This document shows positions 1 to 25,683 of a DNA stretch of 33,248 nt, one piece after another. Position numbers and translations under genes: made by a program. The notes beneath the pieces were generated by a model. It was not told the DNA's origin. It worked only from the letters and a program-made list of their open reading frames with translations, and searched no databases. Location: contig JAOUGY010000003.1 of the NCBI GenBank assembly GCA_029865445.1, positions 1 to 33,248 on the forward strand, in the 5' to 3' direction. This DNA is from Acidimicrobiia bacterium (lineage in GTDB: Bacteria; Actinomycetota; Acidimicrobiia; Spongiisociales; ZC4RG35). The stretch's first letter is position 1. The number at the start of each line of letters is the position of its first letter.

Positions 1-1074
1 AAGGTGCTTCCACATCGGGCAGACCTGCCCTGGACTGCCCACGTTCGCGAGGTGCTGACAGGCGGGAAAGAGCTTCTCGGTCTGGCCGACGACGGTTGGT
101 TCTCGGTGGTGATGTCGACCCGACAACCCGCTGCCGGCGAGAACGTCGCCCACCTGGTTTCGCTGGAGGGCTGGCACGACATCCTGCCCAAGGGGAACGC
201 GCAGAACGCCAGCAGCAGGTCGATCGAGGCGAATCGGACGTACCGGATGATCTCGCTCGCCAGTTGGACGTTCACGTCCCTGGCCAACAGGGGCTCGTTC
301 GGTGAGCTGATGACTGCGATCGTCGACAAGCACAACGACGAGGACGGTGTCGACGACCCTCAGCGGGCACTGCTCAAGTCTGATCGTGAAATCGACACAT
401 CGACCGATGCCGGCGTAGCGTTCGACGACGCCGTACAGCACGGCTTCGTACCGCTCCGTTACGACATGCGCCACGGAGAGCAGAGCGTGGCGTGGTACCG
501 AGGTCCGCTCACGCCGGAGCCGGTGCCCAGAACAGTGGATCGGGCGCCGCTCCCGACCGCCGAGGCCGGGCTGATCTACCACGAGAACATGGCGATGTTC
601 GACACGTCCTATGCAGTTGCATGGCAGCTCGGACGGTTGCTCGCACTGTCGGACCCCGAGTTCTCCAACGCGCTGATGGAGTGGCGTCAGACCGGTCAAC
701 GCCGCGTCGACCGGATCCTCGCGCAGGAGGAAGCCATCGAACGCCACGCCGAGATCCAGACCTTCAAGCGTGCCGGAGAACTGGCGGCGAAGGTCACGGA
801 GTGGGTCCAGGAAGCCGACCGGCGGGATGCCTGGGCGGGGATCGAAGTGGCCGAGGGGGATGAGGCTGCAGCCGTGCTCGAGGAACGACGCCGATCCCTC
901 ATGGATGAGCTGAGGGCGTTCGTGTTGGAAAGTTGGGACCCGAACAGCCTGGCCACGGCCATCGGCACGTACGCCTCGGACGTGGTGCTCCGCGATCTCA
1001 CCGACCCAACCGATGGGGCGTTGGTCGCGGCGCCGGATCCAAAGCGACTACTCGGTGGTGAGGCGAATGTCTGA
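1..1074 (+). CDS. Uncharacterised protein, 5'-truncated by the window edge (first visible gene of the coupled operon)
   Basis: The frame is open from base 1 to TGA 1072-1074 and has GC-rich third positions. Conserved-looking blocks include AHLVSLEG, ISLASWTF, AWYRGPL and FDTSYAVAWQLGRLLALSD. The stop overlaps the next ATG (ATGTCTGA). Confidence 0.85.
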   Translation, partial: KVLPHRADLPWTAHVREVLTGGKELLGLADDGWFSVVMSTRQPAAGENVAHLVSLEGWHDILPKGNAQNASSRSIEANRTYRMISLASWTFTSLANRGSFGELMTAIVDKHNDEDGVDDPQRALLKSDREIDTSTDAGVAFDDAVQHGFVPLRYDMRHGEQSVAWYRGPLTPEPVPRTVDRAPLPTAEAGLIYHENMAMFDTSYAVAWQLGRLLALSDPEFSNALMEWRQTGQRRVDRILAQEEAIERHAEIQTFKRAGELAAKVTEWVQEADRRDAWAGIEVAEGDEAAAVLEERRRSLMDELRAFVLESWDPNSLATAIGTYASDVVLRDLTDPTDGALVAAPDPKRLLGGEANV

Positions 1075-1849
1075 CCTGACCCCGCTCGAACAGGCAGAAC
1101 AGGTTGGCGAAACGCTTGGTCTCACGGAACTCGCCGACGGTGCGGTTCCTCCCGCCGTCGAGAACTGGCTCGCCCGGTTGTCGCTTCTCTACGGGGTTCC
1201 GTTCGAGCATCTGGTGCCCGACGCCACGATGCTTCCGATCGAGTCGATCCGGTTCTTCTACATCGACGCAAATTGGATCGAGGCGATGGTCGACGGGGCG
1301 TTCAGCGTCGGCGTCCACTCCCAGCGAGATGTGCGATTCCACCGACTGCTCCGGCCGGCGGTCCGTCGAGCGACCCAGGTCGCAGCCGGCAAGCTCCGCC
1401 GAGACCTGCGGGGTGAAGCAACCACTCCGGAAGCGGCCGCCACCGACGTCCGGGTGCGAGGAGGTTTCCTGATGCGGTCGGAGATCGTCGCAGGATGGCC
1501 CGGTCTCGAAGTGGCGGGCTATGCGTCGTCCGACTCGTCCGGCACTCCGATCGAGATCCTTCGCCTCGATCGACTCGCCCCGGATCTCCTGTTGTGTATC
1601 TTCGCCGAGGTCCCGGTTCTCGTGGTCATCAACGAGCCGCCCGAAGGGCTGCACTTCGGGACGGGTGGAGTGTCCGTGGCCCCGGAGATGCGCCAGCCGG
1701 GTGGTCGAATCAACCTCTCCAGGTTGGCAAGGGCCATCGCAGGCGCCGACAACAGACAGCAATTGAGTGGGGCGGGCGAGCTTGCCGAAGAGATCGTGAA
1801 CTCGCCCTTGGCCCAGCATTTCGGACCGCCGCCGGGAGGTCAGAATTGA
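1067..1849 (+). CDS. Uncharacterised protein (260 aa)
   Basis: ATG at 1067 overlaps the upstream stop by 8 nt. Motif-like blocks are LLYGVPFEHLVPD, LPIESIRFFYIDANWIEAMVDGAFSVG, GFLMRSEIVAGWPGL and INEPPEGLHFG. No signal peptide. Confidence 0.85.
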   Translation: MSDLTPLEQAEQVGETLGLTELADGAVPPAVENWLARLSLLYGVPFEHLVPDATMLPIESIRFFYIDANWIEAMVDGAFSVGVHSQRDVRFHRLLRPAVRRATQVAAGKLRRDLRGEATTPEAAATDVRVRGGFLMRSEIVAGWPGLEVAGYASSDSSGTPIEILRLDRLAPDLLLCIFAEVPVLVVINEPPEGLHFGTGGVSVAPEMRQPGGRINLSRLARAIAGADNRQQLSGAGELAEEIVNSPLAQHFGPPPGGQN

Positions 1850-4800
1850 CTGCTCCCGCCAGTGTTCCGCTTCTCGTTCCGGTGAATGTCGAAGCGCTCG
1901 TCGTCAACGCCAACGACCGCCGAGCGACGAAATGGTCGGTATCGGCCCGTACCTACGCCGGCAAGGCGGAGCTGCTGCCGATCGAACCCCCGCCCTTCGC
2001 CACCGGCAACGACCGGCCCCGCGAAGGCGTCACTCTCCATTGGTTGGTGCCCGATGGGCTGACGGTGGGCCGATGGCACGACGTCGCCAACGGGACCGAA
2101 TTGAGGTATCCGTTCGTGCCCGACCGCTGGCTGGTGGTCCGCACGTGTGACGTGGACCACAGCCTGTTCACGAAGTCGTGGCTCGTGGAAAGCAATCATC
2201 TCGGGACCGACGGCACCAATCCGGTCCCCGGCGAGGAGAGCGACCGTCTCGGACGCGCCGTCGTACCGAACACGCTCTCCGAGGAGTCTGAACGAACCGT
2301 CGGAGTGACCGCCGCCGGGCCGGTGATCGACGGGCGGATGCCGGATCACGATCCGAGTTACGCCGCCGTGGCGGCCAAGGTCGACAACGTGTTGTCCTTC
2401 CACGACGACCTCTCAGATCTGACCGTCGCAGAGCCGGTCGTTCTGTCGTACGTCGTCGTCGGCTGGTACGACGACCCGTCGTCCGGCGACCCCATGGTCG
2501 ATCGGACCCGTCTGGGACGCGACCTCGCAGCGCTTGCCGACGGCCGGCTGAGTCTCGACGACTGGCGGACTGTCATGCGGGCCTTGGCCTGGTCGGTGGG
2601 CGACGACAACGACCTCCGCCAAGCGCAGCTCGACGCAACCGACGATCCGAGAGAGGCGCCCACCATCGTCCCGGATCACACGATCTGCCATGGGGCTGTT
2701 CACGGTGTGCGGTGGCTCGGAACCGACGGTCCGGCTCAACGGTTCACCGATGGGTCCGATAGCGCATTCGCAAAGATGGCGATCGCCAGCCGTGCCGGCG
2801 TGCCGCAACCGCCGGGCGGATCGGGCGGGCAATGGACACGCGGATTCGAGGACATCGACGACCCAGTGGACTTGGGAGAGTCGTCCGCACTTCGTCGACC
2901 CGGGGCGGCGAGTGGCCATCGCCGGCTGTTCCCGCACGTTGCCGTCGGCACCAGTGCGTCGGAGGCGACGGCGGCGCTGTTCGAGTTCCTCCTCGGCAAA
3001 GAGGAAGGCAGCAGTTCGCCGAGCGACCTCGCCACGCTGTTCCTGGCCCTCGAACACGACATGCTCGACGCCTATGAGCGACCGGGCGGGACCGCAGCGA
3101 TCACGCGCCGGCTCCACCAACAGAGCTTCGTGCCGTCTCCAGGCGGCACCAGATGGGATGTGCGCCTCCGCAGGGTCGCCGGTGACCCCGACGGTGCGGC
3201 GCCAGACGGCCGCGACCTGGTCCGGCAGTTGAGCGCTCTCGACGACCCGGTCGACGTCGAGACTCCGCTTCGCGCTCTCGACGACGCCCAACGCGGTCTG
3301 GAGGTCGCCGAGCAAGAGCTGGCGGCGAGCCGGCGTGAGCTCTACTCGGTCTGGTGGAAACACACACGGAGCGGGTCGACAGCCGCTACTCAGACCGACG
3401 CAGTGCAGGACACAACAACCAAGGCTGCAGCGGTCCGCACCAGGGAAGGCGAGCGTGACGTCGCACGGGTCGCGCTCGAGACGACCCTCGCATCCCAGGC
3501 AGTCAAGGATGCGCTGGCGCAGGTGCTCGCTGGTCAAGACGGTTCGGCAGACACCGAGCTCGAACTCGTCGAGGTGGCGGCGGCGAGGTACTTCGCCCCC
3601 GCCGACCCGGTGGTGGTGATATCCGGCGGACGGGCCTCGTCGAAACACGGAGGAGACGGCCGCTTCAGCGAAGACGGCACGCTGCTCGTCCGGTTCGGTC
3701 GGGGCCGGGTCGGAGCACGCGGGCAGACGCTCAGGTACGGGCGCCCCGGCTTGGCGATCGAACCCGATGACATCATCGATTGGCTGGTCCCGTGGCTGCA
3801 GACAGTGGACCGTGCTCCGGCTGCGGTGGGTGACCTGGTCGCCGAATCGCTGTTGCTCGACCCGTACCGGGCCGCCGACGTCTTCGCGCTGTCGGGTTCC
3901 GAACTCGGGGTCGAAGGTCCCGAGTACGACTTCGAAGACGACCTGGCGGACCTGTGGGACGGTCCCGATGAGGAGCGGTACTCGGTCGCCGCAGTGACGA
4001 GAGCCGCAGGCTTCGCCGGCGTGCGGCCGTCCCCGGTGGCCTTCGAGGCCTGGTCTCAGCCGTGGCGTCCGATTCACCTCGCCTGGCGCACGACCTGGTA
4101 TCCGTCGTCAACGGTCGAGTCGGGATCGTTCGCGGATTGGTCGTTCGATGGCGACGAGTACGACTGGATTGGCCTCAGCGAATTCGACCACTCGAATTCG
4201 GTGACACTTCAGGGCCGCTGCATGCTCGCCAACTCGGCGACGGTCGGTCTCGGATCGTCACTCGACGCCATCTACGAACGTGCGGAGAGCGCACCGGCCG
4301 ATCCGCAACAGAAAGACGCTGATCGCATCAAACGTCAGGAAGATCTGGCGGCGTTGAAGGCGAAACTCGACCGGGTGCGGCGCCGGCTCGGCTCGGCCGA
4401 TCTCATGACCCAGGCATTGTCGGGCTTCCACGCTCAGCTCGTCCAGCGCGATCCAGACCAGTTCATCGAACCCGACCCTCCCCTCGAAGACAGTGCAGAC
4501 CGCAATCTCCTTGGTGACGCCGATCGGGCAGCTCCGCGTCCCTATGGCTCGACCGCCGACACGTTGTTCTTCCCGGTGCGCGCTGGACACGCCCGGGTGC
4601 GGCGCCTGTGGCTCGTCGACGGCTTCGGTCAGGTGTTTGATCTCATCCACGAGCAAGGACTCAACGAAGCCTCCTACGCGCCGCTCCGGGGCAAGGGCCT
4701 CGTCACTGCCGGGCTGAGCCAGCGTTCGGACACCCAGATGCTTCAGTTCCCGCCGCGGCTCGTGCAACCGAGCCGCCTCGAGTTCCGGTTCGGCGACGCC

Positions 4801-5820
4801 GAGCCGGTGGCCGGATGGTTGCTTCCCAACCACTTCGACGGCTCGTTGATGGTGTACGACGGCTCCGGCGCCTCGCTCGGCGCACTGCTTCTGTGGCGGT
4901 CGTCCGGAACCCGTCAGGTCCGGTGGGAACAGGCACCGGGAGGAGCAGGGGGTGTGACCGGAACCGACGTCATCGGCAACCAACGGCTGAAAGCCGTGGT
5001 GAAGGCTCTCGAGGCGATGAACTTTGAGGGCTTCACCGGGTTCATCCAGGCGGTCGATCGGACGCTGTGGACGACCGATCCCGCCGGACGAAGGGGCGAC
5101 AGCACCACCGTCCTCGTAGGTCGCCCGATCGCTGTCGTGGGAGCCCACTTGGCAGTGGAGCTCGACGGTCCCACATTGCTCGATCAAACGTGGGACAAGA
5201 TCGGTGCCCCCGCGTCCGGTCGACAGGGCGATGTGCCCGGCTTGGAGGCAGCGGTGCGGCTCGGTCTTCCGGACGCCCGAGAAGACGGGACGCTCGGCTA
5301 CTTCCTCACCGGCGACGACCGGTTCCACAGCGTGCTCTCGAAGGTCGACACGGCGTCGACCGCCATCGTCGAGTCCGACCGGGAGTTTTGGCCGAGGGCG
5401 CCGATTCGCGTCTCCGGTGTGGCTGATCCGGCGCCTAAAGACATCACCTTGCTGGTCGATCCGCGGGGAACGATCACGGCGTCGACGGGACTCCAGCCCG
5501 CCAAGACGCTCCAGTTGCCGCGATCGTTCGTCGACGGCCCGCTGGCGAAGCTCGATGCCTCGTTCCGTGTGGGGCCGCTGTTGTCCGGTCGCTCGGTGCG
5601 GATGCCGCTGCCCGCCGACATCGCCGGCGGCTGGTCCTGGCTGGAGAAATCGGCCGTCACCATCACCAACAACCAGCTGACCGAGACGTGGAGCGCTCCA
5701 GCCGAAATCGAAGCGGCAGCCCTTTCAGCTCATCTCAACGCTCCACCGACGCGACTCCGGGAAGGGTGGCTTCGTCTCAGTCAGGTCGTCGATCGCCCCC
5801 AGGAAGGACCAACACCATGA
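1846..5820 (+). CDS. Large uncharacterised protein (~1324 aa) with internal coiled-coil segments
   Basis: TTG start at 1846 overlaps the upstream TGA (TTGA) and follows SD GGGAGGT at 1834-1840, so the ORF-track start at 1495 is unlikely. Blocks include GVTLHWLVPDGLTVG, PFVPDRWLVVR, YFAPADPVVVISG, WSQPWRPIHLAW, LWLVDGFGQ, FPPRLVQPSRL and LLVDPRG. Helical heptad segments are LRALDDAQRGLEVAEQELAASRRELY and RQEDLAALKAKLDRVRRRL. Confidence 0.88.
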   Translation: MTAPASVPLLVPVNVEALVVNANDRRATKWSVSARTYAGKAELLPIEPPPFATGNDRPREGVTLHWLVPDGLTVGRWHDVANGTELRYPFVPDRWLVVRTCDVDHSLFTKSWLVESNHLGTDGTNPVPGEESDRLGRAVVPNTLSEESERTVGVTAAGPVIDGRMPDHDPSYAAVAAKVDNVLSFHDDLSDLTVAEPVVLSYVVVGWYDDPSSGDPMVDRTRLGRDLAALADGRLSLDDWRTVMRALAWSVGDDNDLRQAQLDATDDPREAPTIVPDHTICHGAVHGVRWLGTDGPAQRFTDGSDSAFAKMAIASRAGVPQPPGGSGGQWTRGFEDIDDPVDLGESSALRRPGAASGHRRLFPHVAVGTSASEATAALFEFLLGKEEGSSSPSDLATLFLALEHDMLDAYERPGGTAAITRRLHQQSFVPSPGGTRWDVRLRRVAGDPDGAAPDGRDLVRQLSALDDPVDVETPLRALDDAQRGLEVAEQELAASRRELYSVWWKHTRSGSTAATQTDAVQDTTTKAAAVRTREGERDVARVALETTLASQAVKDALAQVLAGQDGSADTELELVEVAAARYFAPADPVVVISGGRASSKHGGDGRFSEDGTLLVRFGRGRVGARGQTLRYGRPGLAIEPDDIIDWLVPWLQTVDRAPAAVGDLVAESLLLDPYRAADVFALSGSELGVEGPEYDFEDDLADLWDGPDEERYSVAAVTRAAGFAGVRPSPVAFEAWSQPWRPIHLAWRTTWYPSSTVESGSFADWSFDGDEYDWIGLSEFDHSNSVTLQGRCMLANSATVGLGSSLDAIYERAESAPADPQQKDADRIKRQEDLAALKAKLDRVRRRLGSADLMTQALSGFHAQLVQRDPDQFIEPDPPLEDSADRNLLGDADRAAPRPYGSTADTLFFPVRAGHARVRRLWLVDGFGQVFDLIHEQGLNEASYAPLRGKGLVTAGLSQRSDTQMLQFPPRLVQPSRLEFRFGDAEPVAGWLLPNHFDGSLMVYDGSGASLGALLLWRSSGTRQVRWEQAPGGAGGVTGTDVIGNQRLKAVVKALEAMNFEGFTGFIQAVDRTLWTTDPAGRRGDSTTVLVGRPIAVVGAHLAVELDGPTLLDQTWDKIGAPASGRQGDVPGLEAAVRLGLPDAREDGTLGYFLTGDDRFHSVLSKVDTASTAIVESDREFWPRAPIRVSGVADPAPKDITLLVDPRGTITASTGLQPAKTLQLPRSFVDGPLAKLDASFRVGPLLSGRSVRMPLPADIAGGWSWLEKSAVTITNNQLTETWSAPAEIEAAALSAHLNAPPTRLREGWLRLSQVVDRPQEGPTP

Positions 5821-7268
5821 ACTACTCGATTCAACCGCCCGATGACGTGATCGAGGCGAGTTTCAGCACCGAACCCGATGACGTGAGTGTGGCATCGATC
5901 CGGATCGAGGCGTCCAAGGGATCCGAGACGATCGACGATCTGACCAGGATCGAGTTCCGGTTACCTCTGTCGCTGACGACCAACGCCGGGAGTGTGACGC
6001 CGCAGGCCCAGAGGTTCGCCGATTGGGAGATGAACGTCGCGACGGACGCCGACGGGTGGGTGTTCGTGGCGAAACCGCGGCGGTCTCCCCAGGGTGAGTC
6101 CTGGGTGTTCTTCCTCCGTGATGTGGAGGTTTCGACTGGGGCGGGTTCGACGCACGTGAAGGTCACTGAAGTCCGCGGTGGCACCGCAGGAAGGCCGGTG
6201 GAGCTCCCGATCCGGAAGGTCGATCCGACGCTGCGGATCGACTACTTCTACGTCACGGCAGATCCCGCCAGTGTGAGCGACGATCTGGCCGTCCCGTCTG
6301 TTGCGGACGCGAGGATCACGTCCGGGCAAAGTGCGTTTCTGACCTGGGCCACCACGGCGGCGACGTCTGTGTCGCTTCACGGGCCGGCCATCGCCGGGAT
6401 GCCCGCCACTGGTGGTCTCCTGCCCGCTGGGAGCGACGACGCCACGATCAAGGTCAATCCGACAACAACCAGCACCTACACCCTCGTCGCTTCGAACGCG
6501 TCCGCCCACGCCGTTGCGCAGGTCACCATCACCGTCACCGGTGGTGGCCCGATCGAAGCCACCTCGGTGGCGGTGTCCACGAACGACAACGGCAGAGACT
6601 CGATCAAGATCACAACGGACGCCGATGAGGCGCTCGTCCGCTTGAAACGACCAGCTGTCTCGAGGCCAAACGGCGTGTATCCGTTCATCGTGCTCGAAAC
6701 CGAGACCACGCTGTTCAAGCCCGTGGTGATCGATGTACGACAACGCACGCCGCCGCCCCGGCAGGGTCAAGCTCCGGAAGAGGCGAACAACGTCCTATTC
6801 ATCTCATACTCCCGCCAGGTGAATCCGTATGCCGGTGCGTGGCTCGACGCCAACTACGACTGGCAGAAACCATCTGACGCCGCCGTCAAACGCGATGTTC
6901 AGGAACTGGATGGGACGCTCGAGGCATTGATGCAGATGACACCGGTCGCGTTCAAGTGGAAGGACGGGGCCACGGGTGAAGTGCGCCAATTCGGATTCGT
7001 CGCACAGGAGGTCGAGGGCGTGCTGCCAGAGCTCGTCGGACGCATGCCTACATCGGACGGATCCGAGGGCCATAGATCCATGGCCTACTCGCCGATCGAT
7101 GCAGTGACCGTTGGCGCTATTCAGGAGCTCAAGCGGGCGACGGATCAGCGTCTGGCCCAAATCGAGGCCACGATCGAAGTGCTATCTCGCGCCGTTTCCG
7201 ATCTGGCCGATCGACTCCCGCGAGGCTCCTCAGATCGACCGTTGGACACCGGAGCCGGGTCCCCATGA
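5817..7268 (+). CDS. Tail-fibre-like protein with Ig-like region and C-terminal intramolecular chaperone autoprocessing domain (Peptidase_S74)
   Basis: ATGA overlap at 5817-5820, with an upstream AGGAAGGA SD. The C-terminus PSDAAVKRDV...LMQMTPVAFKWK...FGFVAQEVEGVLPELV...MAYSPIDAVTVGAIQELK plus a coiled coil matches the S74 pattern (SDxxxK, GFIAQEV, AIQEL). The middle region (LTWATTAATSV...TTTSTYTLVASN...QVTITV) is Ig/PKD-like. Confidence 0.85.
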   Translation: MNYSIQPPDDVIEASFSTEPDDVSVASIRIEASKGSETIDDLTRIEFRLPLSLTTNAGSVTPQAQRFADWEMNVATDADGWVFVAKPRRSPQGESWVFFLRDVEVSTGAGSTHVKVTEVRGGTAGRPVELPIRKVDPTLRIDYFYVTADPASVSDDLAVPSVADARITSGQSAFLTWATTAATSVSLHGPAIAGMPATGGLLPAGSDDATIKVNPTTTSTYTLVASNASAHAVAQVTITVTGGGPIEATSVAVSTNDNGRDSIKITTDADEALVRLKRPAVSRPNGVYPFIVLETETTLFKPVVIDVRQRTPPPRQGQAPEEANNVLFISYSRQVNPYAGAWLDANYDWQKPSDAAVKRDVQELDGTLEALMQMTPVAFKWKDGATGEVRQFGFVAQEVEGVLPELVGRMPTSDGSEGHRSMAYSPIDAVTVGAIQELKRATDQRLAQIEATIEVLSRAVSDLADRLPRGSSDRPLDTGAGSP

Positions 7269-9514
7269 CCACCCGCGAGCGCTCCGCCTGGACAGTTGAT
7301 CGGGTGGCCGGAATGGCGTGGATGGGGGCGCCGTCGCTTGCTCTCGACAGTCGGCGCCTCCCGCAGGCCGCAGCATGGCGTCAGACAACCGGCAACGGGA
7401 TCGGGACGCTCTCGCTCGCGAGGTTCGACGGATTGAGGTGGATGGTCGACGAAGTCGTCGACGCGTTTGGGGCGCACGCGTCGTTCGTCATCGATGGTGA
7501 AGGCCGGCCCGCCGTGGTGTACGTGGACCTCGACCAATCGTCGGTGATGCTTGCTCACGCAGCGGAACCTGGGGGCGAATGGGCTATCGAGACCGTCGCA
7601 GAAGGTGTGCATGGACTCCTTGCTGGGGGACCATCGCTCGCACACGACGGTGACGGTCGGCCACAGGTCGCCTACGCCACCGACGGGGGTGTGATGATCG
7701 CGGCCCGCACCGTGGCGGGTGTGTGGGAGACCGATCCGGTGGTTGAAGTCATAGAACCCGCCAACGACGTGGCGCTGGCAATCGACGGGAGTGGCGTGCG
7801 TCACGTCCTCCAGCGCACGATCTTCTCGAATGCGTTGATCCTGCACTCCGACCAGGGAGGGTCCTGGAGCGCGAGCGCGGTCCCGTGGGGCGACGACCCG
7901 GACGCTGGGTTCCTGGGTGACCGACCATGCCTCGCCGTGGATCCTGACGGCCGTCCGCACGTGGCGTATTGGACGCGGGTCGGCGTGTGCCACGCCACCG
8001 CCGACGACGATGGTGAATGGCAGATCACGGTCGCCATCCCTGGCGAAGCCGCCGGTCCCAATCCGGCCATCTCGGTCGACTCCCACGGACACCCCGTGAT
8101 CGCCTGCGTGAACCCGGCCGGTGGCAACATCGAGCTGGCCCGGCTGAGCGCCAACGGGTGGCGCTCCGAGACGATCGCCGCCGGGTCGAAGTTCCACGAC
8201 ACCGCCGGGTGGGTCTCCATGGTCGTCGACGACTTCGGCGTGCTCCACCTTGCGGTTTCACACGACGAGTCGGGCGAGTTGATGTGGATTCGGTCCAACC
8301 GCGGCCCTATCACCAAGCCGCTGCGCCTGACGGCGTTCCGAGACATGCCTCTCACAGGACACAGCATCGCCGAGGGAGCGAGCGACCCGGATGGCGATGA
8401 CCTCGCCGTCTCTACTCGACCGGTGAGGAAGCCATCGCACGGCAAGGTGACGATCCGATCGGGCGGTGGCTTCACCTACACGCCGCACCGAGGCTATCTC
8501 GGGCATGATGAGTTCCGGTACGAGGTGACGGACCACACCGGCCTGAACGCCATAGGTGGTGTCGAGATCGAGGTGGTCGTACCGGTTCTGATCAGAGTCG
8601 CTCAGCGGCCGCTCGCCGACAAGCGGCGTGGCAGCACGATTCGCCTGTCCCTGAGGAAGGGTCCGCTCCACGGCATCAAGGCGACCCTGCAGCGGAAGCG
8701 ACGTGGAAGGTGGCACGACATCCGAAGCGGACCGGCGGGTCAACTGGCAAAACTCCTCGCACCCATCGGCGACGAGTGGACTCAGGGGCCGTTCCGCGTC
8801 GAACTGCGACCTCCCGGCGACGGGGAAGTGCTGTGCCTGAGCGAGGAGTTCAGCTTGCCACCGAAGCGCGGCGTCGAACTCGTGGTGTCCGGCGACTTGA
8901 CCGGCCTCCCGACGCTCAAGCGTCCACCCGAACCTACCCCGGAGCCGCAGCCGCAGCCAACACCGGTGCCCGTCTTCGACCCTGCGGCCGGGTTGTGGGG
9001 TACGTGGCCTTCGAAGCGGAACAAGCCGCCGCTGGCTCGGGGATCGCAGGGTGATGCCGTTCGATATCTGCAGGGTGTGCTGTTGCACAGAACCAAGGGC
9101 AAGGTCACGGTAGATGGGATCTATGGCGTGGACACGTCGCGTCGAGTCCGCGAGCTGCAGCGCCGTGAACAGATCCGGGTTGACGGTGAGATCGGTGAAG
9201 AGACGTGGCCCGTGATCGACAGGCTTGCACGAAAGGATCCGGTGCCGGTGTTCGACCCCGTGGCAGGGTTGTGGGGTACGTGGCCTTCGAAGCGGAACAA
9301 GCCGCCGCTGGCTCGGGGATCGCAGGGTGATGCCGTTCGATATCTGCAGGGTGTGTTGCTGCACAGAACCAAGGGCAACATCACCGTGGATGGGGTCTAC
9401 GGCGTGAACACGGCGAATCGAGTCCGCGAGCTGCAGCGTCAGGAAAAGATCCGGGTCGACGGCGAGGTTGGGAAAGGGACGTGGCCCGTGATCGACAGGC
9501 TCGCCACTCGGTGA
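7265..9514 (+). CDS. Multidomain protein: ~7-blade beta-propeller + cadherin/Ig-like (Big_9-type) domain + Pro-rich linker + two tandem peptidoglycan-binding (PG_binding_1-like) domains
   Basis: ATGA overlap at 7265-7268. Seven 'SL(A)xDxxGxP(H)VAY'-like repeats are followed by DPDGDDL...PSHGKVTI...FTYTPHRGYLGHDEFRYEVTD and PEPTPEPQPQPTP. Two copies of LARGSQGDAVRYLQ...VDGxYGxxT...VRELQR...VDGExGxxTW close the protein. Confidence 0.85.
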   Translation: MTTRERSAWTVDRVAGMAWMGAPSLALDSRRLPQAAAWRQTTGNGIGTLSLARFDGLRWMVDEVVDAFGAHASFVIDGEGRPAVVYVDLDQSSVMLAHAAEPGGEWAIETVAEGVHGLLAGGPSLAHDGDGRPQVAYATDGGVMIAARTVAGVWETDPVVEVIEPANDVALAIDGSGVRHVLQRTIFSNALILHSDQGGSWSASAVPWGDDPDAGFLGDRPCLAVDPDGRPHVAYWTRVGVCHATADDDGEWQITVAIPGEAAGPNPAISVDSHGHPVIACVNPAGGNIELARLSANGWRSETIAAGSKFHDTAGWVSMVVDDFGVLHLAVSHDESGELMWIRSNRGPITKPLRLTAFRDMPLTGHSIAEGASDPDGDDLAVSTRPVRKPSHGKVTIRSGGGFTYTPHRGYLGHDEFRYEVTDHTGLNAIGGVEIEVVVPVLIRVAQRPLADKRRGSTIRLSLRKGPLHGIKATLQRKRRGRWHDIRSGPAGQLAKLLAPIGDEWTQGPFRVELRPPGDGEVLCLSEEFSLPPKRGVELVVSGDLTGLPTLKRPPEPTPEPQPQPTPVPVFDPAAGLWGTWPSKRNKPPLARGSQGDAVRYLQGVLLHRTKGKVTVDGIYGVDTSRRVRELQRREQIRVDGEIGEETWPVIDRLARKDPVPVFDPVAGLWGTWPSKRNKPPLARGSQGDAVRYLQGVLLHRTKGNITVDGVYGVNTANRVRELQRQEKIRVDGEVGKGTWPVIDRLATR
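8963..9505 (+). repeat. Intragenic tandem duplication, 276-bp period (2 copies, 92 aa), encoding the PG-binding domains
   Basis: Copies start at 8963 and 9239. The stretch 8990-9079 is identical to 9266-9355 (90 nt). Confidence 0.93.
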
Positions 9515-9610
9515 CATCGTCGCAGGCGCCATGGTCCCGTTGGAGGCGCTGAGCCGAGCACGAGATGTAGGGCCGGGGGCCGGTCCACCCGCCGACTTGC
9601 ACCGGCCGAT

Positions 9611-10651
9611 TCAACGGCTCACGGCATCGGCGGCCGACGTGATCGTCTTCGTGACCAAGCGCTCGGTGAAGCCCGCGGCGACGGCGATGCCGAGCATCGC
9701 GTTCGGTGCCACCTTGATTGCATCGGCGAGCACGGACTGCAGCATCACGATCGCCACGACGGCCCCGGTCGCTCCGACAAATGGCCGCATTCCCATCAGC
9801 GTGTAGGTGACCTGTATGTCGGGGATGGTCAGCTTCTCCTCCCGATCCGACAGTCGGGTTGCGGAACTGAGGTACGCACCGAGCGCGCCCAGACCCATCA
9901 CCATCAGCAGACTCTGCCAATCCAGGAGCGGCGAGTCGGCAGGGGCGAGAGCGGCCGGGACCCACTTGGACGCCACACCCGCGGCCAGGGAGGCAAGGAC
10001 GACGGCCAGGGACACCGAGGTGATGATCACCGCCCGCCGCAGGATCCTGTACTTGTGATACATGTTGTCGGTGTGGACGTCGACCATGGCCTTTGCTCTG
10101 ATGAGTCGCGTCTTGAGGTCCTCGATCTGATCTGCAGACACCTGCCCATCGGCGTCGCCGAGCGTCGCCGAGCTGGCTTCGATGCTCGACACCGCTTCGT
10201 TCTCCGCTCCACCATTCGGCGGATCGGCCGACTCGGTGGGGAGACTGAGCTCTATCGTCTGGGTCACGTTCGGGGCGGCAGACCGGCCCATGGCGGCGTC
10301 GGGGAGGAGCGCCACCACTGACGCATGGCGCCATCCGCTCAGCTTCTCATCGGCCTCTCCGCGGATCACGTGGGCTTCGGCCGTGAGCTCAGGCCAAGTG
10401 AACGAACGAATCATCTCCCGCTCAGCCGACTTCAGGGCTGTCCATGAGATCTGCAGCTGAAAGTCGGCACGGGCTCTCGAGGCGCTCTCGACCCTGGACT
10501 CGACCGAATCGAGGTGGTCGCTTCCTCCCGCATGTCGTCGACGTTCGAGTTCTCTCAGGGTCGCGTCGAGCGCCGCGTCGAATCGCTGGACTTCCTCCAC
10601 CGTGACACCGGCAAAGAGCCGACGAAGCAAACGGGGTCGCGCGGCATCCAT
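9611..10651 (-). CDS. Uncharacterised membrane protein (soluble helical N-terminus, ~4 C-terminal TM helices)
   Basis: 346-aa ORF with a GGAGAG SD. Hydrophobic segments are AVIITSVSLAVVLASLAAGV, LLMVMGLGALGAYLSS, RPFVGATGAVVAIVML and MLGIAVAAGFTERLV. Confidence 0.8.
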   Translation of the reverse strand: MDAARPRLLRRLFAGVTVEEVQRFDAALDATLRELERRRHAGGSDHLDSVESRVESASRARADFQLQISWTALKSAEREMIRSFTWPELTAEAHVIRGEADEKLSGWRHASVVALLPDAAMGRSAAPNVTQTIELSLPTESADPPNGGAENEAVSSIEASSATLGDADGQVSADQIEDLKTRLIRAKAMVDVHTDNMYHKYRILRRAVIITSVSLAVVLASLAAGVASKWVPAALAPADSPLLDWQSLLMVMGLGALGAYLSSATRLSDREEKLTIPDIQVTYTLMGMRPFVGATGAVVAIVMLQSVLADAIKVAPNAMLGIAVAAGFTERLVTKTITSAADAVSR

Positions 10652-14381: not shown

Positions 14382-15362
14382 CTACTCGGCCGGGATGTCC
14401 CACTCGGCGGCGATGATCGGCCACACCACCGCAGCCAGGCGGATCGCTCCATCCGTCGTCAGGTGGACACCGTCGTTGAGGCGCATGTCCACGAGGTCAC
14501 CGTCGGCGTTGGGGAGGTACTCCGAGTACCCACCGTCGGGCCCGGTGAACACCGACCAGCTCTCCACGAAGTGCACTCCATCGTGGGCGGCCGCCTCCGA
14601 TTCGTAGATTTCGTTGAGCGTCTCGACTCGAGGCCGGAAGGTGTCGGAGCTGACGATCGGCATTCCCATCCAGTAGACGTCCCGGCCGTCATCCACCAAC
14701 TCGCCCATCAACGCCCCCACTCGCGCCCGATATTCGGTGAGCCACTCGTCCGTGCCGAAGGGAACCCAGGTTCCATCGACCCTGATGTCTTGGGCGTCGT
14801 TTCCTCCGAAGAAGAGCACCATCACTTCCGGGTCCTGCTCGGCGCGCACGGTGCGAAGGCGGGCCGGCCAATCAACAAAGTCGTTTCGCGTGATTCCCGA
14901 CTCGAACTCGTATTGGACCTCGGCGATCACCAGTCCGGTCGCCTCCGCTCGCCTCTCCAGCATCGGCCCGAACTGACCGACCATCGAATCGCCACCGATG
15001 TACATGCGCAAGGGCTCGGAAGCCGTGATCGTCCGCGCCTCGGCCACGGTGGTGGTGGTCACCGCCACCGTGGGGGACGTCGTGGGCGTCGTGGACGGCG
15101 GAGTCTCCTCATCGGTTCGACCCAGGGCCGCATCGATTACGTTGCGGGGCGCATCGATCTGGACGAAGTCGGTGACGGCTGCGATGGGCGTCATGAGCGC
15201 CACCCCCACGGTTCTCTGCCAACCGGCCTCCTGGCGCTCGGCAGTGGCAAGGATGTCCGAAGCATTCAAGAGCAGCCCGAGGCCGAGCGCGATGGTCACG
15301 ATGAGGATGGCGTGTCCTGCAGCCATTCGGCCCTGGTTCGATCGTTGGTGGTTGCTCGACAT
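14382..15362 (-). CDS. Membrane-anchored SGNH/GDSL hydrolase-fold protein (DUF459-like; PatB/AlgJ-like O-acetyltransferase partner)
   Basis: N-terminal TM helix, Thr/Pro-rich linker, and SGNH blocks GDSM, GGNDAQ and DGVH. It starts 3 bp after the MBOAT stop. Confidence 0.82.
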   Translation of the reverse strand: MSSNHQRSNQGRMAAGHAILIVTIALGLGLLLNASDILATAERQEAGWQRTVGVALMTPIAAVTDFVQIDAPRNVIDAALGRTDEETPPSTTPTTSPTVAVTTTTVAEARTITASEPLRMYIGGDSMVGQFGPMLERRAEATGLVIAEVQYEFESGITRNDFVDWPARLRTVRAEQDPEVMVLFFGGNDAQDIRVDGTWVPFGTDEWLTEYRARVGALMGELVDDGRDVYWMGMPIVSSDTFRPRVETLNEIYESEAAAHDGVHFVESWSVFTGPDGGYSEYLPNADGDLVDMRLNDGVHLTTDGAIRLAAVVWPIIAAEWDIPAE

Positions 15363-15365
15363 GGC

Positions 15366-16772
15366 TCAGAATTGGAAGTAGATGAACGGTGCGACGCCTT
15401 CGGGGCCGAGTCCGTCGACAAGCAACAGGACCGCCCCAAGGGCGGCCGCCATCGCCACCGGTCGGAGACGGCCGAATTGATGGCGGGCGCGGAGACGGAG
15501 GTGGCGCGGTACGTAGTGCACTGCGATACCGCCCGCCACCAGGAGCAGCACCGTGGGGGTCACGGCCGGCGCCGGACCGAAATGGACGAGGCGGGACAAC
15601 ATCGTCCCGGCCAAGGCGAACGACTCCGCCCGGAAGAACACCCACCCGAGACACACCAGGTGGAACGTGAGGACGCGCCTGGCGAACACGGTCGCCGGGG
15701 TCTGTGGTCTCGGTTCAGCCCGTTCGCCCATCCACCGTTCCACGGCGAGTCCGCCTCCGTGGAGCAGTCCCCAAACCACGAACGTCCAGGCGGCGCCGTG
15801 CCACAACCCGCCGAGGACCATGGTCAGCAGCAGGTTCCGGTACGTCTCGGCGCGGGTGCCGCGGCTGCCGCCGAGTGGGATGTACAGGTAGTCCCGGAGC
15901 CAGCGAGACAGCGTCATGTGCCAGCGTCGCCAAAAGTCCTGGAGCGACACGGCCCGGTAGGGATGTTCGAAGTTCTGAGGGAAACGGAAACCCATCAGGA
16001 GAGCGACCCCGATGGCGATGTCGGTGTAGCCCGAGAAGTCGGCATAGATCTGCACCGCATATCCGTAGATCGCAAACAGGACCTCGAGCGCCGAATACGC
16101 CCCCGGGTTGGCGAACACGCCATCGACGATGGCCGCGGCGAGAGTGTTGGCGACCACGACCTTCTTGAAGAGCCCTCCCGCAATGAGTCCGAAGGCCTCG
16201 ACCGCCTCCACGTTCCTCGGGTCCTTTCTCTCCTTCAGTTGGGGCAGGAACTCTGAACTCCTCACGATCGGACCGGCGACGAGTTGAGGGAAGAACGCGA
16301 GGAACACGGCGAAATCGAGGGGAGCGGTAGGACGTGCGGAACCGCGGTAGACGTCGATGACGTACGACAGCGCCTGGAAGGTGAAGAACGAGATGCCGAC
16401 CGGCAGCGTGATCCTCAGCAGCGGTAGTGGCAGGTCGATCCCAAGCCGTCCGGCGAGGTTCACGGCGGAGCTGACGAAGAAGCCGTAGTACTTGAACCAC
16501 CCGAGAGCCGCCAGGTTGCCGGCCACCGCCATCTTCACCAGTCGCTTGCGCGCATTCGGATCCGGGGCCCGGTCGATGACCGTGGCCATCGCCTGGTTGA
16601 AGACCGTGGAGGCGATGATGAGACCCAGGAACCGCCAATCCCAAGCCCCGTAGAACAGGTAGCTGGCGGCGAGCATGAAGACCTTCCACGCTCCACGGTG
16701 GGGCAGGAGGAGCCAGTTGGCTGTCAGGACCACCAGGAAGAAGATGGCGAATTCGACGGTCGGGAACAGCAT
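15366..16772 (-). CDS. MBOAT family O-acyltransferase (AlgI/PatA type)
   Basis: MLFPTVEF start, LPVGISFFTFQALSYVIDVYR, FFPQLVAGPIVR, YADFSGYTDIAIG, FWRRWHMTLSRWLRDYLYIPLGG, GLWHGA (catalytic His) and a PFIYFQF C-terminus. Confidence 0.93.
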   Translation of the reverse strand: MLFPTVEFAIFFLVVLTANWLLLPHRGAWKVFMLAASYLFYGAWDWRFLGLIIASTVFNQAMATVIDRAPDPNARKRLVKMAVAGNLAALGWFKYYGFFVSSAVNLAGRLGIDLPLPLLRITLPVGISFFTFQALSYVIDVYRGSARPTAPLDFAVFLAFFPQLVAGPIVRSSEFLPQLKERKDPRNVEAVEAFGLIAGGLFKKVVVANTLAAAIVDGVFANPGAYSALEVLFAIYGYAVQIYADFSGYTDIAIGVALLMGFRFPQNFEHPYRAVSLQDFWRRWHMTLSRWLRDYLYIPLGGSRGTRAETYRNLLLTMVLGGLWHGAAWTFVVWGLLHGGGLAVERWMGERAEPRPQTPATVFARRVLTFHLVCLGWVFFRAESFALAGTMLSRLVHFGPAPAVTPTVLLLVAGGIAVHYVPRHLRLRARHQFGRLRPVAMAAALGAVLLLVDGLGPEGVAPFIYFQF

Positions 16773-24222: not shown

Positions 24223-25683
24223 TCAGTGTCCAGCCAGCTCTGCCTGGCGACCGGCCAGGAGAGAGCCCATGGCGAACGGATCGTCTTTGAACAAGAGGTC
24301 GATTGCGTCGAAATCGGCGAGGCCCGCCGAGAGTAGCTGTGCGCTCGCATCGTCCGACCCGTCGAACCGGCGCCGCAGGATTGCCCGAATGGTGTTGGAC
24401 GCCGTTTCGTTCCAGTCGCTGCGTGTTTGGGTGAGTGCAGCGAACCGGCGGGCGTCCGCCGGCGTCGGCAGGAGCCTTGCTTTCACCGATGTGGCAGGGT
24501 CGGAGGCCGCCGCCGATCTCACTGCATGCTCGAGCGTGTGCATCGTCGAACCTCCGAGTGTGAATGGAGCGTAAGACGCCGGATGGAGCGGATTACCCAC
24601 GAATAGAGGCTGGCGCCGCCGCGCCGCTCCTGTGGCGTCCATGAGGGCGTCTGCGTGTCCGGCAATCCCATCGACGTACTCGAGGTGGTCGAGCCACGGA
24701 GCCGGGAGTCCGGCCGCTCCGTTGTAGGCCCCGGCGAACGCACCGACCAGCGAGCCCACCGTCGCCGAGGCCCGGCCGCCGTTGATGGCGATGATGGTGG
24801 CCTTCACCATGTCATCGGGGGCGGACGCAAAAGCCCAGACTGCCGCCGGCAGCGCTTCGAGAACAAAATCTCCGGTACCGAGGGCGGCGTAGGCCGCCTG
24901 CAGTGGTTTGCCCACCGTGTCGAGGGCGACGATCAGACGTTCCCGAAGGTTGGATCGGGCCGGAACATGTACGAGTTCCACCGAGGGGTCCTCCAAGCCG
25001 TCGAGCGCCTGGGTGATCACGTCGAGGAGCCTCGACGGGTCGAATTCGCCCGTCGGCAGTCTGCTGAGGTGCGCGACGGTGGCGGCGGTGGCCACCGAGG
25101 CCGCCACGGCCGTCTGATCGGCATGAGTCTGCATGGTTGCGAGGGTGGCCGACAGGCGCAACATATCCATGTCGTCGGGGTGGATCAGACCGACCACGGC
25201 TGCGCGGCTGGCGGCACCACTGCCCGCCGAGTGCTGACCCGAGTGGGTCCAGGGCCGGCCGTTGCGAAGCGCGAGCGTGGCGGCGGTGTTGGCGTCGCCG
25301 GCGCCGCGAGCGATGGGGAGCCACGCCTGGAGCCGCTGGGCGAAGTCCCTCGGGTCGAACTGGCCATTGGTGGCGGCGCAGGCGGCTGTGAGAAGAGCGA
25401 GTTGGGTGTCGGCGCCCACCTGGCCCGCCGGGAGCAACGATGCGGGATGACGTGAGCACAGATACCGATTGACCCGGCCGTGCCGTTCGGCGATGGTGCT
25501 GGGGGTGAGCCCTTCGATCGGTTTGCCGAGTGCATCGCCGATGGCGAGCCCCAGGAGCATTCCGCGGTGGCGGTCGGCCGTGTCGACCTCTCCGTACCCG
25601 TGGTCGAGGTAGTCGCCGAGCGGGCGCGGAAGAAACCCACGTTCGGTCAGGACGCTTCGTTCGTCCCAGGTGAGAATATCCAC
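24223..25683 (-). CDS. ADP-ribosylglycohydrolase (ARH/DraG)-fold protein with degenerate catalytic motifs, fused to a degenerate C-terminal NADAR-like domain
   Basis: RGMLLGLAIGDALG, SAGSGAASR, QTH and GAFAGAYNG...LPAPWL identify the ARH fold. The C-terminal YAPFTLGGSTMHTLEH...TPADARR...RSDWNE...LRRRF...QLLSAG follows the NADAR/YbiA pattern. The probable start is GTG 25683 after GAGG; the ORF track extends to 25857. Confidence 0.8.
   Translation of the reverse strand: MDILTWDERSVLTERGFLPRPLGDYLDHGYGEVDTADRHRGMLLGLAIGDALGKPIEGLTPSTIAERHGRVNRYLCSRHPASLLPAGQVGADTQLALLTAACAATNGQFDPRDFAQRLQAWLPIARGAGDANTAATLALRNGRPWTHSGQHSAGSGAASRAAVVGLIHPDDMDMLRLSATLATMQTHADQTAVAASVATAATVAHLSRLPTGEFDPSRLLDVITQALDGLEDPSVELVHVPARSNLRERLIVALDTVGKPLQAAYAALGTGDFVLEALPAAVWAFASAPDDMVKATIIAINGGRASATVGSLVGAFAGAYNGAAGLPAPWLDHLEYVDGIAGHADALMDATGAARRRQPLFVGNPLHPASYAPFTLGGSTMHTLEHAVRSAAASDPATSVKARLLPTPADARRFAALTQTRSDWNETASNTIRAILRRRFDGSDDASAQLLSAGLADFDAIDLLFKDDPFAMGSLLAGRQAELAGH

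Follow-up and report, generated by a model that had tools for sequence, protein, structure and literature searches.

The window analysed here (33,248 nt) is the whole of contig C347 of the Acidimicrobiia genome G000, whose assembly comprises 539 contigs and 3.98 Mb, with about 65% GC and a completeness of 89%. Positions 1–9514 are filled by five co-oriented genes on the plus strand, g1 to g5, whose stop and start codons overlap by 4–8 nt. The first gene is cut by the contig end; its missing part lies on contig C397, behind a gene for a DUF6603 protein (P0006). We designated the DUF6603 protein A, and g1, g2, g3 and g4 as B1, B2, C and D, respectively. The genes and features are as follows.

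1..1074, plus strand: g1, cut at the 5' end; C-terminal 357 codons of a core protein of about 530 aa.
Contig C397, L001:6390-7055: N-terminal part of g1, its first 222 codons, overlapping window 1–147.
1067..1849, plus strand: g2, a 260-aa core protein; its ATG lies inside ATGTCTGA, overlapping the g1 stop.
1846..5820, plus strand: g3, a 1324-aa core protein; its TTG start lies inside TTGA.
5817..7268, plus strand: g4, a binder protein of 483 aa that belongs to the variable D family and overlaps g3 by ATGA.
5817..6536, plus strand: g4 residues 1–240, a cassette-specific adaptor (about 1–140) and an immunoglobulin (Ig)-like module (about 148–245).
6873..7037, plus strand: Peptidase_S74 of g4, an intramolecular chaperone at residues 353–407 (Pfam E = 2e-14).
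7265..9514, plus strand: g5, a 749-aa accessory protein; ATGA overlap with g4.
8303..8569, plus strand: Big_9/cadherin-like Ig domain of g5, about residues 347–436 (Pfam E = 5.5e-14).
9029..9214, plus strand: first PG_binding_1-type repeat of g5, about residues 589–650 (Pfam, with a SleB-type NCBIfam match over 589–650).
9323..9484, plus strand: second PG_binding_1 repeat of g5, residues 687–740, the best Pfam stretch.

The conserved N-terminus of g3 (LLVPxxVxALVV) starts at the TTG start codon. No terminator-like or promoter-like pattern was found at window 9300–10000.

Contig C397 encodes P0006 in a 2115-codon DUF6603 frame, the end of which joins the start of g1 via ATGA. The last 147 nt of C397 were the same as window 1–147 except for one mismatch. 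In 77 of 80 other loci both halves of g1 matched one and the same contiguous homologue, which supports the join of C397 to the window. Since C397 carries a DUF6603 gene joined to g1, the operon contains at least six genes. The mismatch is a C at window position 127 and a T at position 7035 of L001, and this one-base difference between C397 and C347 suggests strain variation at the assembly break. An initial annotation, made from the window alone, had read the five overlapping genes directly from the sequence and had expected more genes to their left, naming DUF6603 proteins as neighbours of such clusters. The contig upstream bore this out: the 2115-aa DUF6603 protein lies directly before g1. 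Nothing resembling a phage or an extracellular contractile injection system (eCIS) was found in the operon or in the window. Window 1–9514 and the DUF6603 gene of C397 are a six-gene operon, one copy of a widespread non-phage cassette, A-B1-B2-C-D.

The cassette was traced through relatives of g2. These were present in 320 stretches of one-genome-per-species contigs, and the best 80 of the 320 were kept as loci L011–L090. A tblastn search of the 80 loci with the six proteins detected g2 in 80, g3 in 78, g1 in 77, DUF6603 in 70, g4 in six and g5 in two. The order DUF6603-g1-g2-g3 was always colinear and on one strand; g1 always lay directly upstream of g2, and g3 directly followed g2 in 78 of the 80 loci. 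Ten loci had no DUF6603 match, and eight of these have less than 4 kb of sequence upstream of g2. No gene upstream of A was conserved across the loci, nor were any other flanking genes. The carriers represent at least 10 phyla, among them Actinomycetota, Acidobacteriota, Bacteroidota, Verrucomicrobiota, Gemmatimonadota, Planctomycetota, Proteobacteria, Cyanobacteria, Chloroflexota and Bacillota, and the cassette spans both monoderm and diderm phyla. The homologues therefore form the conserved cluster in diverse bacteria that the initial annotation had proposed.

The cassette products are also linked by natural fusions. g1 and g2 formed a single reading frame in 34 of the 76 loci (out of 80) that could be classified, g2 stood at the C-terminal end of 48 longer database proteins, and g3 shared one frame with the adaptor in L064 and L082. 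In all fused g1-g2 loci with a complete A (23 of 23), A was 1289–1626 aa long; loci with split g1 and g2 mostly had giant A genes. Two further candidate fusions, P0157 (DUF6603+g1+g2) and P0165 (g2+g3), were discounted, as their Arg/Pro-rich stretches resemble frameshifted translation. One could suppose that there is no functional unit and that unrelated neighbours simply overlap as is usual in a GC-rich genome. Four-base overlaps are indeed common in compact operons; this explanation is nevertheless contradicted by the colinearity in 80 loci of many phyla and by the fusions of neighbouring genes, and we consider it scarcely credible. What is conserved is DUF6603-g1-g2-g3 together with a gene of the g4 type, and g5 is a lineage-specific add-on. 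The five genes had initially been taken for subunits of one complex. For the core genes this view is favoured by their constant order and fusions; g5 is an addition found in two of the 80 loci.

Within the phylum of the source organism the cassette is rare: among 301 genomes, six contained DUF6603 and one, G000 itself, contained g2. Ten records of large plasmids from Streptomyces, Embleya, Kitasatospora and Paenibacillus carried g2. On a plasmid of Paenibacillus sonchi (NZ_CP068596.1; L106 10633–15604), a 685-aa g1-g2 fusion is followed by a 934-aa protein, and transposase and helicase genes adjoin; this arrangement may be a reduced or rearranged cassette. Ten sequencing runs carrying the DNA were found, from sediment and soil metagenomes, and there was no RNA run among the matches listed.

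We then examined the core proteins. P0006 matched PF20248 (DUF6603) at residues 996–1494 with 429 bits against a cut-off of 27 (E = 3e-128), covering model positions 1–495 of 502. It is the sole DUF6603 copy in the source genome, and all 30 cassette A proteins that were scanned contained a DUF6603 match. g1, g2 and g3 had no match in Pfam, NCBIfam, PHROGs or PADLOC, in agreement with the initial annotation, which could not name a family for any of them. A had no PHROG match, none of the six operon proteins matched a PADLOC family at E ≤ 0.01, and Pfam scans of the components turned up neither an NTPase or nuclease domain nor any other effector domain. The 280 homologues of g2, from many phyla, were all unnamed and Pfam-free, and a g2 profile built from 31 homologues matched 3613 representative clusters at E ≤ 1e-3 (3279 at E ≤ 1e-10) among 1.84 billion. 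g3 was conserved over its full length in the set of 59 complete genes. Where annotated at all, the core proteins are 'hypothetical' throughout. Neither 'DUF6603' nor 'PF20248' occurs in searchable papers, and the system may be in print under another name.

Homologue alignments were made for g3 (55 of the 59 complete genes, those of up to 1420 aa, plus the window g3) and for A (29 of the 30 complete A genes, with L031 left out, plus P0006). The Trp/Pro/Gly blocks that had been pointed out as conserved motifs proved to be truly conserved columns in the homologue alignments. A 19-residue Kyte-Doolittle scan, which is a crude test, detected no signal-peptide-like or transmembrane-like segment in any operon protein, and the earlier statement that signal peptides are absent stands to that extent.

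Sequence and profile searches of A against the PDB returned nothing meaningful, and a g1/g1-g2 profile of 34 sequences found no PDB relative. The single g3 sequence had no PDB relative either, and the g3 profile gave three matches with E values of 0.37–0.6 only. In the ESM Atlas, g3 led to unnamed clusters only and g1 to no usable match. Structural searches covered g2 and one g3 homologue. The AlphaFold2 model of g2 had a mean predicted local distance difference test score (pLDDT) of 71 and a predicted template modelling score (pTM) of 0.51; Foldseek found no PDB match at E ≤ 1e-3, and the best VIA match of a wide search had a Z score of 5.8. The g3 homologue L042:6025–9588 (1188 aa, 26% identical to the window g3) was modelled from a 56-row alignment with a pLDDT of 87.6 and a pTM of 0.84. 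This model had no PDB or BFVD match at E ≤ 1e-3, the best BFVD match having an E value of 2e-2 at a TM score of 0.07. Its VIA matches were generic FN3/Ig-like domains over residues 4–271 only (best Z score 5.2), and the later domains were barely covered. The missing fold matches are no proof of new folds.

The A proteins differ in their N-terminal parts. We fetched five giant A proteins in full (L092–L096, from G301–G305). They come from Bacteroidota, Acidobacteriota and three proteobacterial classes, have 3162–3419 aa and 26–38% identity, and align collinearly along more than 3000 aa. In the four that were scanned (L095 was left out), Pfam detected no domain within the N-terminal ~2100 aa apart from one sub-threshold, chance-level match in L093 (E = 0.045). 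Only the C-terminal ~1100 aa are common to the A of this operon and the giant proteins, and its N-terminal ~990 aa matched L011 only. This N-terminal region contains a weak, sub-threshold alpha/beta-hydrolase-like elbow (E = 0.031 and 0.48).

Phage and contractile injection system (CIS) components were looked for in several ways. No g2 was confirmed in IMG/VR (0 of 117 pattern matches), and g2 had no match in 50,697 phage genomes. Phage_sheath_1 was absent from the source genome, which is 89% complete, and from the Pfam matches of the operon; the control was positive in 3 of 14 genomes. Baseplate_J, the wedge protein of the gp6/TssF type, had no match in the same genome. Tube, gp25-like and spike/VgrG families were absent from the Pfam, NCBIfam and PHROG matches of the six proteins; no genome-wide search was made for them. 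No TcA-type or RHS family occurred in the Pfam matches of the six proteins, the 30 A proteins or the four giant A N-termini. Among ten flanking open reading frames (ORFs) of the window, two had no family and eight were non-phage (seven metabolic or signalling, one cytolysin-like).

These results bear on the possibility that the locus is a very diverged phage-tail or baseplate module, such as a tailocin- or eCIS-like remnant, in which A, g1-g2 and g3 would be unrecognisable baseplate or hub proteins carrying ordinary tail fibres. The order of large structural genes, fibre genes and alternative fibre cassettes is tail-like; S74 and tail Collar domains, both found among the binder genes described below, are typical of phage fibres; and the N-terminal domain of the g3 homologue aligned weakly with many FN3/Ig domains, including a lambda tail-tip chain (Z score 4.7). 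However, A, g1, g2 and g3 match no PHROG and no tail family of Pfam or NCBIfam, the confident model of the g3 homologue lacks a PDB or BFVD match at the threshold used, g2 is absent from IMG/VR and the phage genomes, the source genome has no sheath or Baseplate_J, and the 80 loci have no conserved flanks. A diverged tail module thus seems quite unlikely.

The gene that follows g3 was analysed in the 63 loci with at least 1.5 kb of sequence after g3. In 50 of them a gene on the plus strand started within 200 nt of the g3 stop, and 43 of these 50 position-5 proteins clustered with g4 in BLASTP, via g4 residues 1–240. An iterated hidden Markov model (HMM) of the adaptor detected 83 ORFs in 53 of the 80 loci, often as 2–4 tandem paralogues; a few ORFs (in L079 and L083) matched it via the Ig-like half only. 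Seven loci (L021, L027, L031, L036, L041, L051 and L090) contained 3–4 tandem adaptor paralogues. The domains found in the D-region genes were as follows.

Kelch: 7 of 51 position-5 genes, 2 of 65 genes further downstream.
Lactonase-type propeller: 5 of 51 at position 5, 2 of 65 further downstream.
YNCE-type propeller: 4 of 51 at position 5, none listed further downstream.
Phage tail Collar: 4 of 51 at position 5, 5 of 65 further downstream.
Peptidase_S74: 2 of 51 at position 5, 5 of 65 further downstream.

The closest relative, L011, has only residues 1–231 of g4 in common with the window. As similarity is confined to the N-terminus even there, g4 consists of a fixed adaptor, an Ig-like module and an exchangeable tip. 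Judged from these sequences, the D proteins as a family share an N-terminal adaptor, and their C-terminal binding modules are exchangeable. The variable last genes expected in the initial annotation are hence variable in their C-termini and keep their N-terminal adaptor.

The S74 domain of g4 scored 53.9 bits against a cut-off of 22. It is C-terminal, was confirmed on the DNA, and is the only S74 domain in the source genome. In an alignment, the g4 segment SDAAVKRDV fell on SDRRIKKDI of the tail-fibre chain 6f45_A; we take a Ser/Lys pair at that spacing, from the endosialidase literature, to be the S74 autoproteolytic dyad. Mature g4 would then have about 352 residues, a predicted short trimeric tip and not a long fibre. 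Of the self-cleaving tail fibre that g4 had been called, the S74 end is confirmed above the Pfam cut-off, and the fibre would shrink to this tip.

An intracellular conflict or immune complex is another possibility, in which the variable D proteins would be sensors of invaders and A, B and C an effector scaffold. The patchy spread across phyla (of the 301 genomes of this phylum, one has g2 and six have DUF6603), the failure to find signal peptides, the tandem diversified D paralogues and the copies on large plasmids are all consistent with such a role. On the other hand, PADLOC gave no match, the components lack NTPase, nuclease or other effector domains, and S74, tail Collar, Ig-like and peptidoglycan-binding domains typically belong to virion proteins or to proteins outside the cytoplasm. 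We regard an immune function as unlikely.

The accessory protein g5 contains six D-x-x-G-x-P/H-x-V repeats at residues 77, 128, 174, 226, 272 and 322, about 50 residues apart; these repeats and a sub-threshold BNR_4 match are the basis for calling its N-terminal part a propeller. Its two PG_binding_1 stretches (69.8 bits against a cut-off of 23, E = 2e-19) are two near-identical repeats of about 95 aa, as the initial description of tandem peptidoglycan-binding domains had it, and the repeat matched the wall-binding domain of the endolysins 3bkh and 9xps. g5 did not match the g4 adaptor model. Its homologues beside the cassette were found in L011 (full length) and L014 (residues 24–545, without the peptidoglycan-binding part).

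Peptidoglycan-binding domains could also mean that the operon builds part of the producer's own envelope or surface, such as a giant assembly, adhesin-like or bridging, that D and g5 anchor to the cell's own wall or to surfaces. The giant, beta-rich and conserved A proteins of about 3200 aa, the Ig-like repeats and the housekeeping neighbourhood would suit such a structure as well. Against it, the crude scan detected no signal peptide, transmembrane helix or sorting signal, the monoderm and diderm carriers have very different envelopes, and the cassette is too rare in the phylum for a core envelope role. This explanation is therefore very unlikely in our view.

A second DUF6603 subfamily was found in five other genomes of the phylum (G052, G158, G024, G151 and G006, the last with four copies). 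Its eight loci (L097–L104) have a colinear cassette of their own, A'-B'-C'-D', in which A' has 922–1504 aa, B' 825–1196 aa and C' 1271–1767 aa. Profile comparison by hhalign relates B' to g1 (probability 97.4%, E = 1.4e-11), whereas C' showed no detectable relation to g3 (E = 0.35). B', C' and D' belong to no Pfam family, and the g4 adaptor model had no match in these loci. The second-subfamily loci have a g1-like neighbour but neither g2 nor g3; the DUF6603 family is wider than the g2-bearing cassette.

We propose that the cassette products form a non-phage complex of several subunits, with exchangeable binders on display and cell envelopes as its probable site of action, and assign this a probability of roughly 45%. 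Because A, B and C have no signal peptide or transmembrane helix, they would join into a single large complex in the cytoplasm. The D adaptor would dock on this complex, probably on C. In the operon studied here D would be a trimer, with its short tip folded and then released by the S74 chaperone, and g5 would contribute a propeller and two peptidoglycan-binding domains. Once outside the cell, set free by lysis or through some export route, the assembly would act at the cell wall, as suggested by the peptidoglycan-binding domains that g5 brings; an action on envelopes more generally is suggested by the S74, Collar, Ig-like and peptidoglycan-binding domains. Once bound, it might adhere, attack the wall or deliver a payload.

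Several observations count against this proposal. In L016 and L086, where some 10 kb of sequence precedes g2, DUF6603 is missing (in L086, from within about 8 kb), as is g1 in L016; in L062 (Moorena) the 10 kb downstream contain no g3; and no DUF6603 gene is annotated next to the g1-g2 fusion on the Paenibacillus sonchi plasmid. Genes for lysis, secretion or an ATPase were not conserved beside the cassette in the 80 loci. A and g1 may have a tail-like fold, given that the fold searches covered g2 and the g3 homologue. The alpha/beta-hydrolase elbow in A is a possible hint of an activity that stays below threshold. A polymorphic toxin payload on A was considered and found to be unsupported, the giant A proteins being collinear across phyla and free of any recognisable toxin domain. 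Kelch and other propellers also act as intracellular sensors. Finally, peptidoglycan-binding domains occur only in the source lineage and L011, so 'cell wall' may not hold as the target family-wide. This last point qualifies the initial proposal of a non-phage, non-CIS device aimed at bacterial cell walls: no phage or CIS genes were found in the operon or the window, and the wall as target would apply to that lineage and L011.

The product of the operon may be a protein machine of a new kind, one that targets cells. In a broader form of the proposal, which we hold more tentatively and with some doubt, the cassette would represent an undescribed class: a large, ATPase-less and sheath-less machine that is assembled in the cytoplasm and released, and whose interchangeable tips, trimeric fibres or propellers, aim it at other cells. 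Its origin would be independent of phage tails, CIS and Tc toxins, with only the fibre tips borrowed from phages, and the sister cassette would extend the class. Exchangeable fibre or propeller tips on a fixed adaptor are a hallmark of systems that recognize variable cell surfaces. If this holds here, the cassette would be a new family of targeting or delivery devices, a potential programmable binder platform, and would take part in the competition among microbes of soils and sediments. The family is widespread yet nameless, with 3613 representative clusters for g2 alone and core proteins called 'hypothetical', and the 1188-aa g3 homologue has a confident predicted architecture for which no solved or viral counterpart was found. 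The cassette is directly testable, as there are several cultured and non-pathogenic carriers: Janthinobacterium, Taibaiella, Marinomonas shanghaiensis, Pseudoalteromonas holothuriae, Paenibacillus kobensis and Streptacidiphilus anmyonensis.

The rest of the window is a housekeeping flank that encodes beta-oxidation enzymes, an MBOAT protein, a histidine kinase, NDH-2 and similar proteins. Four ORFs in it deserve mention. In a 1038-aa protein encoded at 29085–32201 (minus strand), a Thiol_cytolysin domain (E = 2e-29) is combined with PKD domains and a weak match to SLH; the protein may be a cholesterol-dependent-cytolysin-like pore former, perhaps tethered to the cell wall. Two long ORFs adjoining the operon, at 9611–10651 (minus strand) and 14463–16256 (plus strand), have no Pfam family; the latter overlaps minus-strand ORFs, including the MBOAT gene (15366–16772), and may be a GC-rich artefact. 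At 24223–25857 (minus strand), a 544-aa protein of the ADP-ribosylglycohydrolase family has about 100 extra N-terminal and about 150 extra C-terminal residues.

We compared the cassette with known systems. A matches the whole model of Pfam DUF6603, a family without a described function. Tc (ABC) toxins offer an analogy in their very large subunits without signal peptides, their Ig-like receptor-binding parts and their patchy distribution; yet the cassette contains no Tc/RHS family, and no sequence or fold similarity was found. Tailocins and eCIS (R/F pyocins, Afp and PVC) are likewise analogous in assembling in the cytoplasm without signal peptides and in carrying exchangeable fibre genes at the operon end. 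They differ in that the source genome has no sheath or Baseplate_J, A and g1–g3 belong to no PHROG or Pfam tail family, and the g3 homologue has no fold match. The S74 tail fibres and spikes of phages (endosialidase type, 6f45) resemble g4 at residues 353–407, including the Ser...Lys motif, and 26 PHROG tail-fibre families match the C-terminal end of g4 (25 among the matches listed). This likeness is limited to the last ~130 residues; the N-terminal 240 are absent from PHROGs, and the genes do not lie in a phage. The PG_binding_1 modules of endolysins, finally, resemble the C-terminus of g5; no catalytic endolysin domain was found in g5, which carries in its N-terminal part a propeller-like region and an Ig-like domain.

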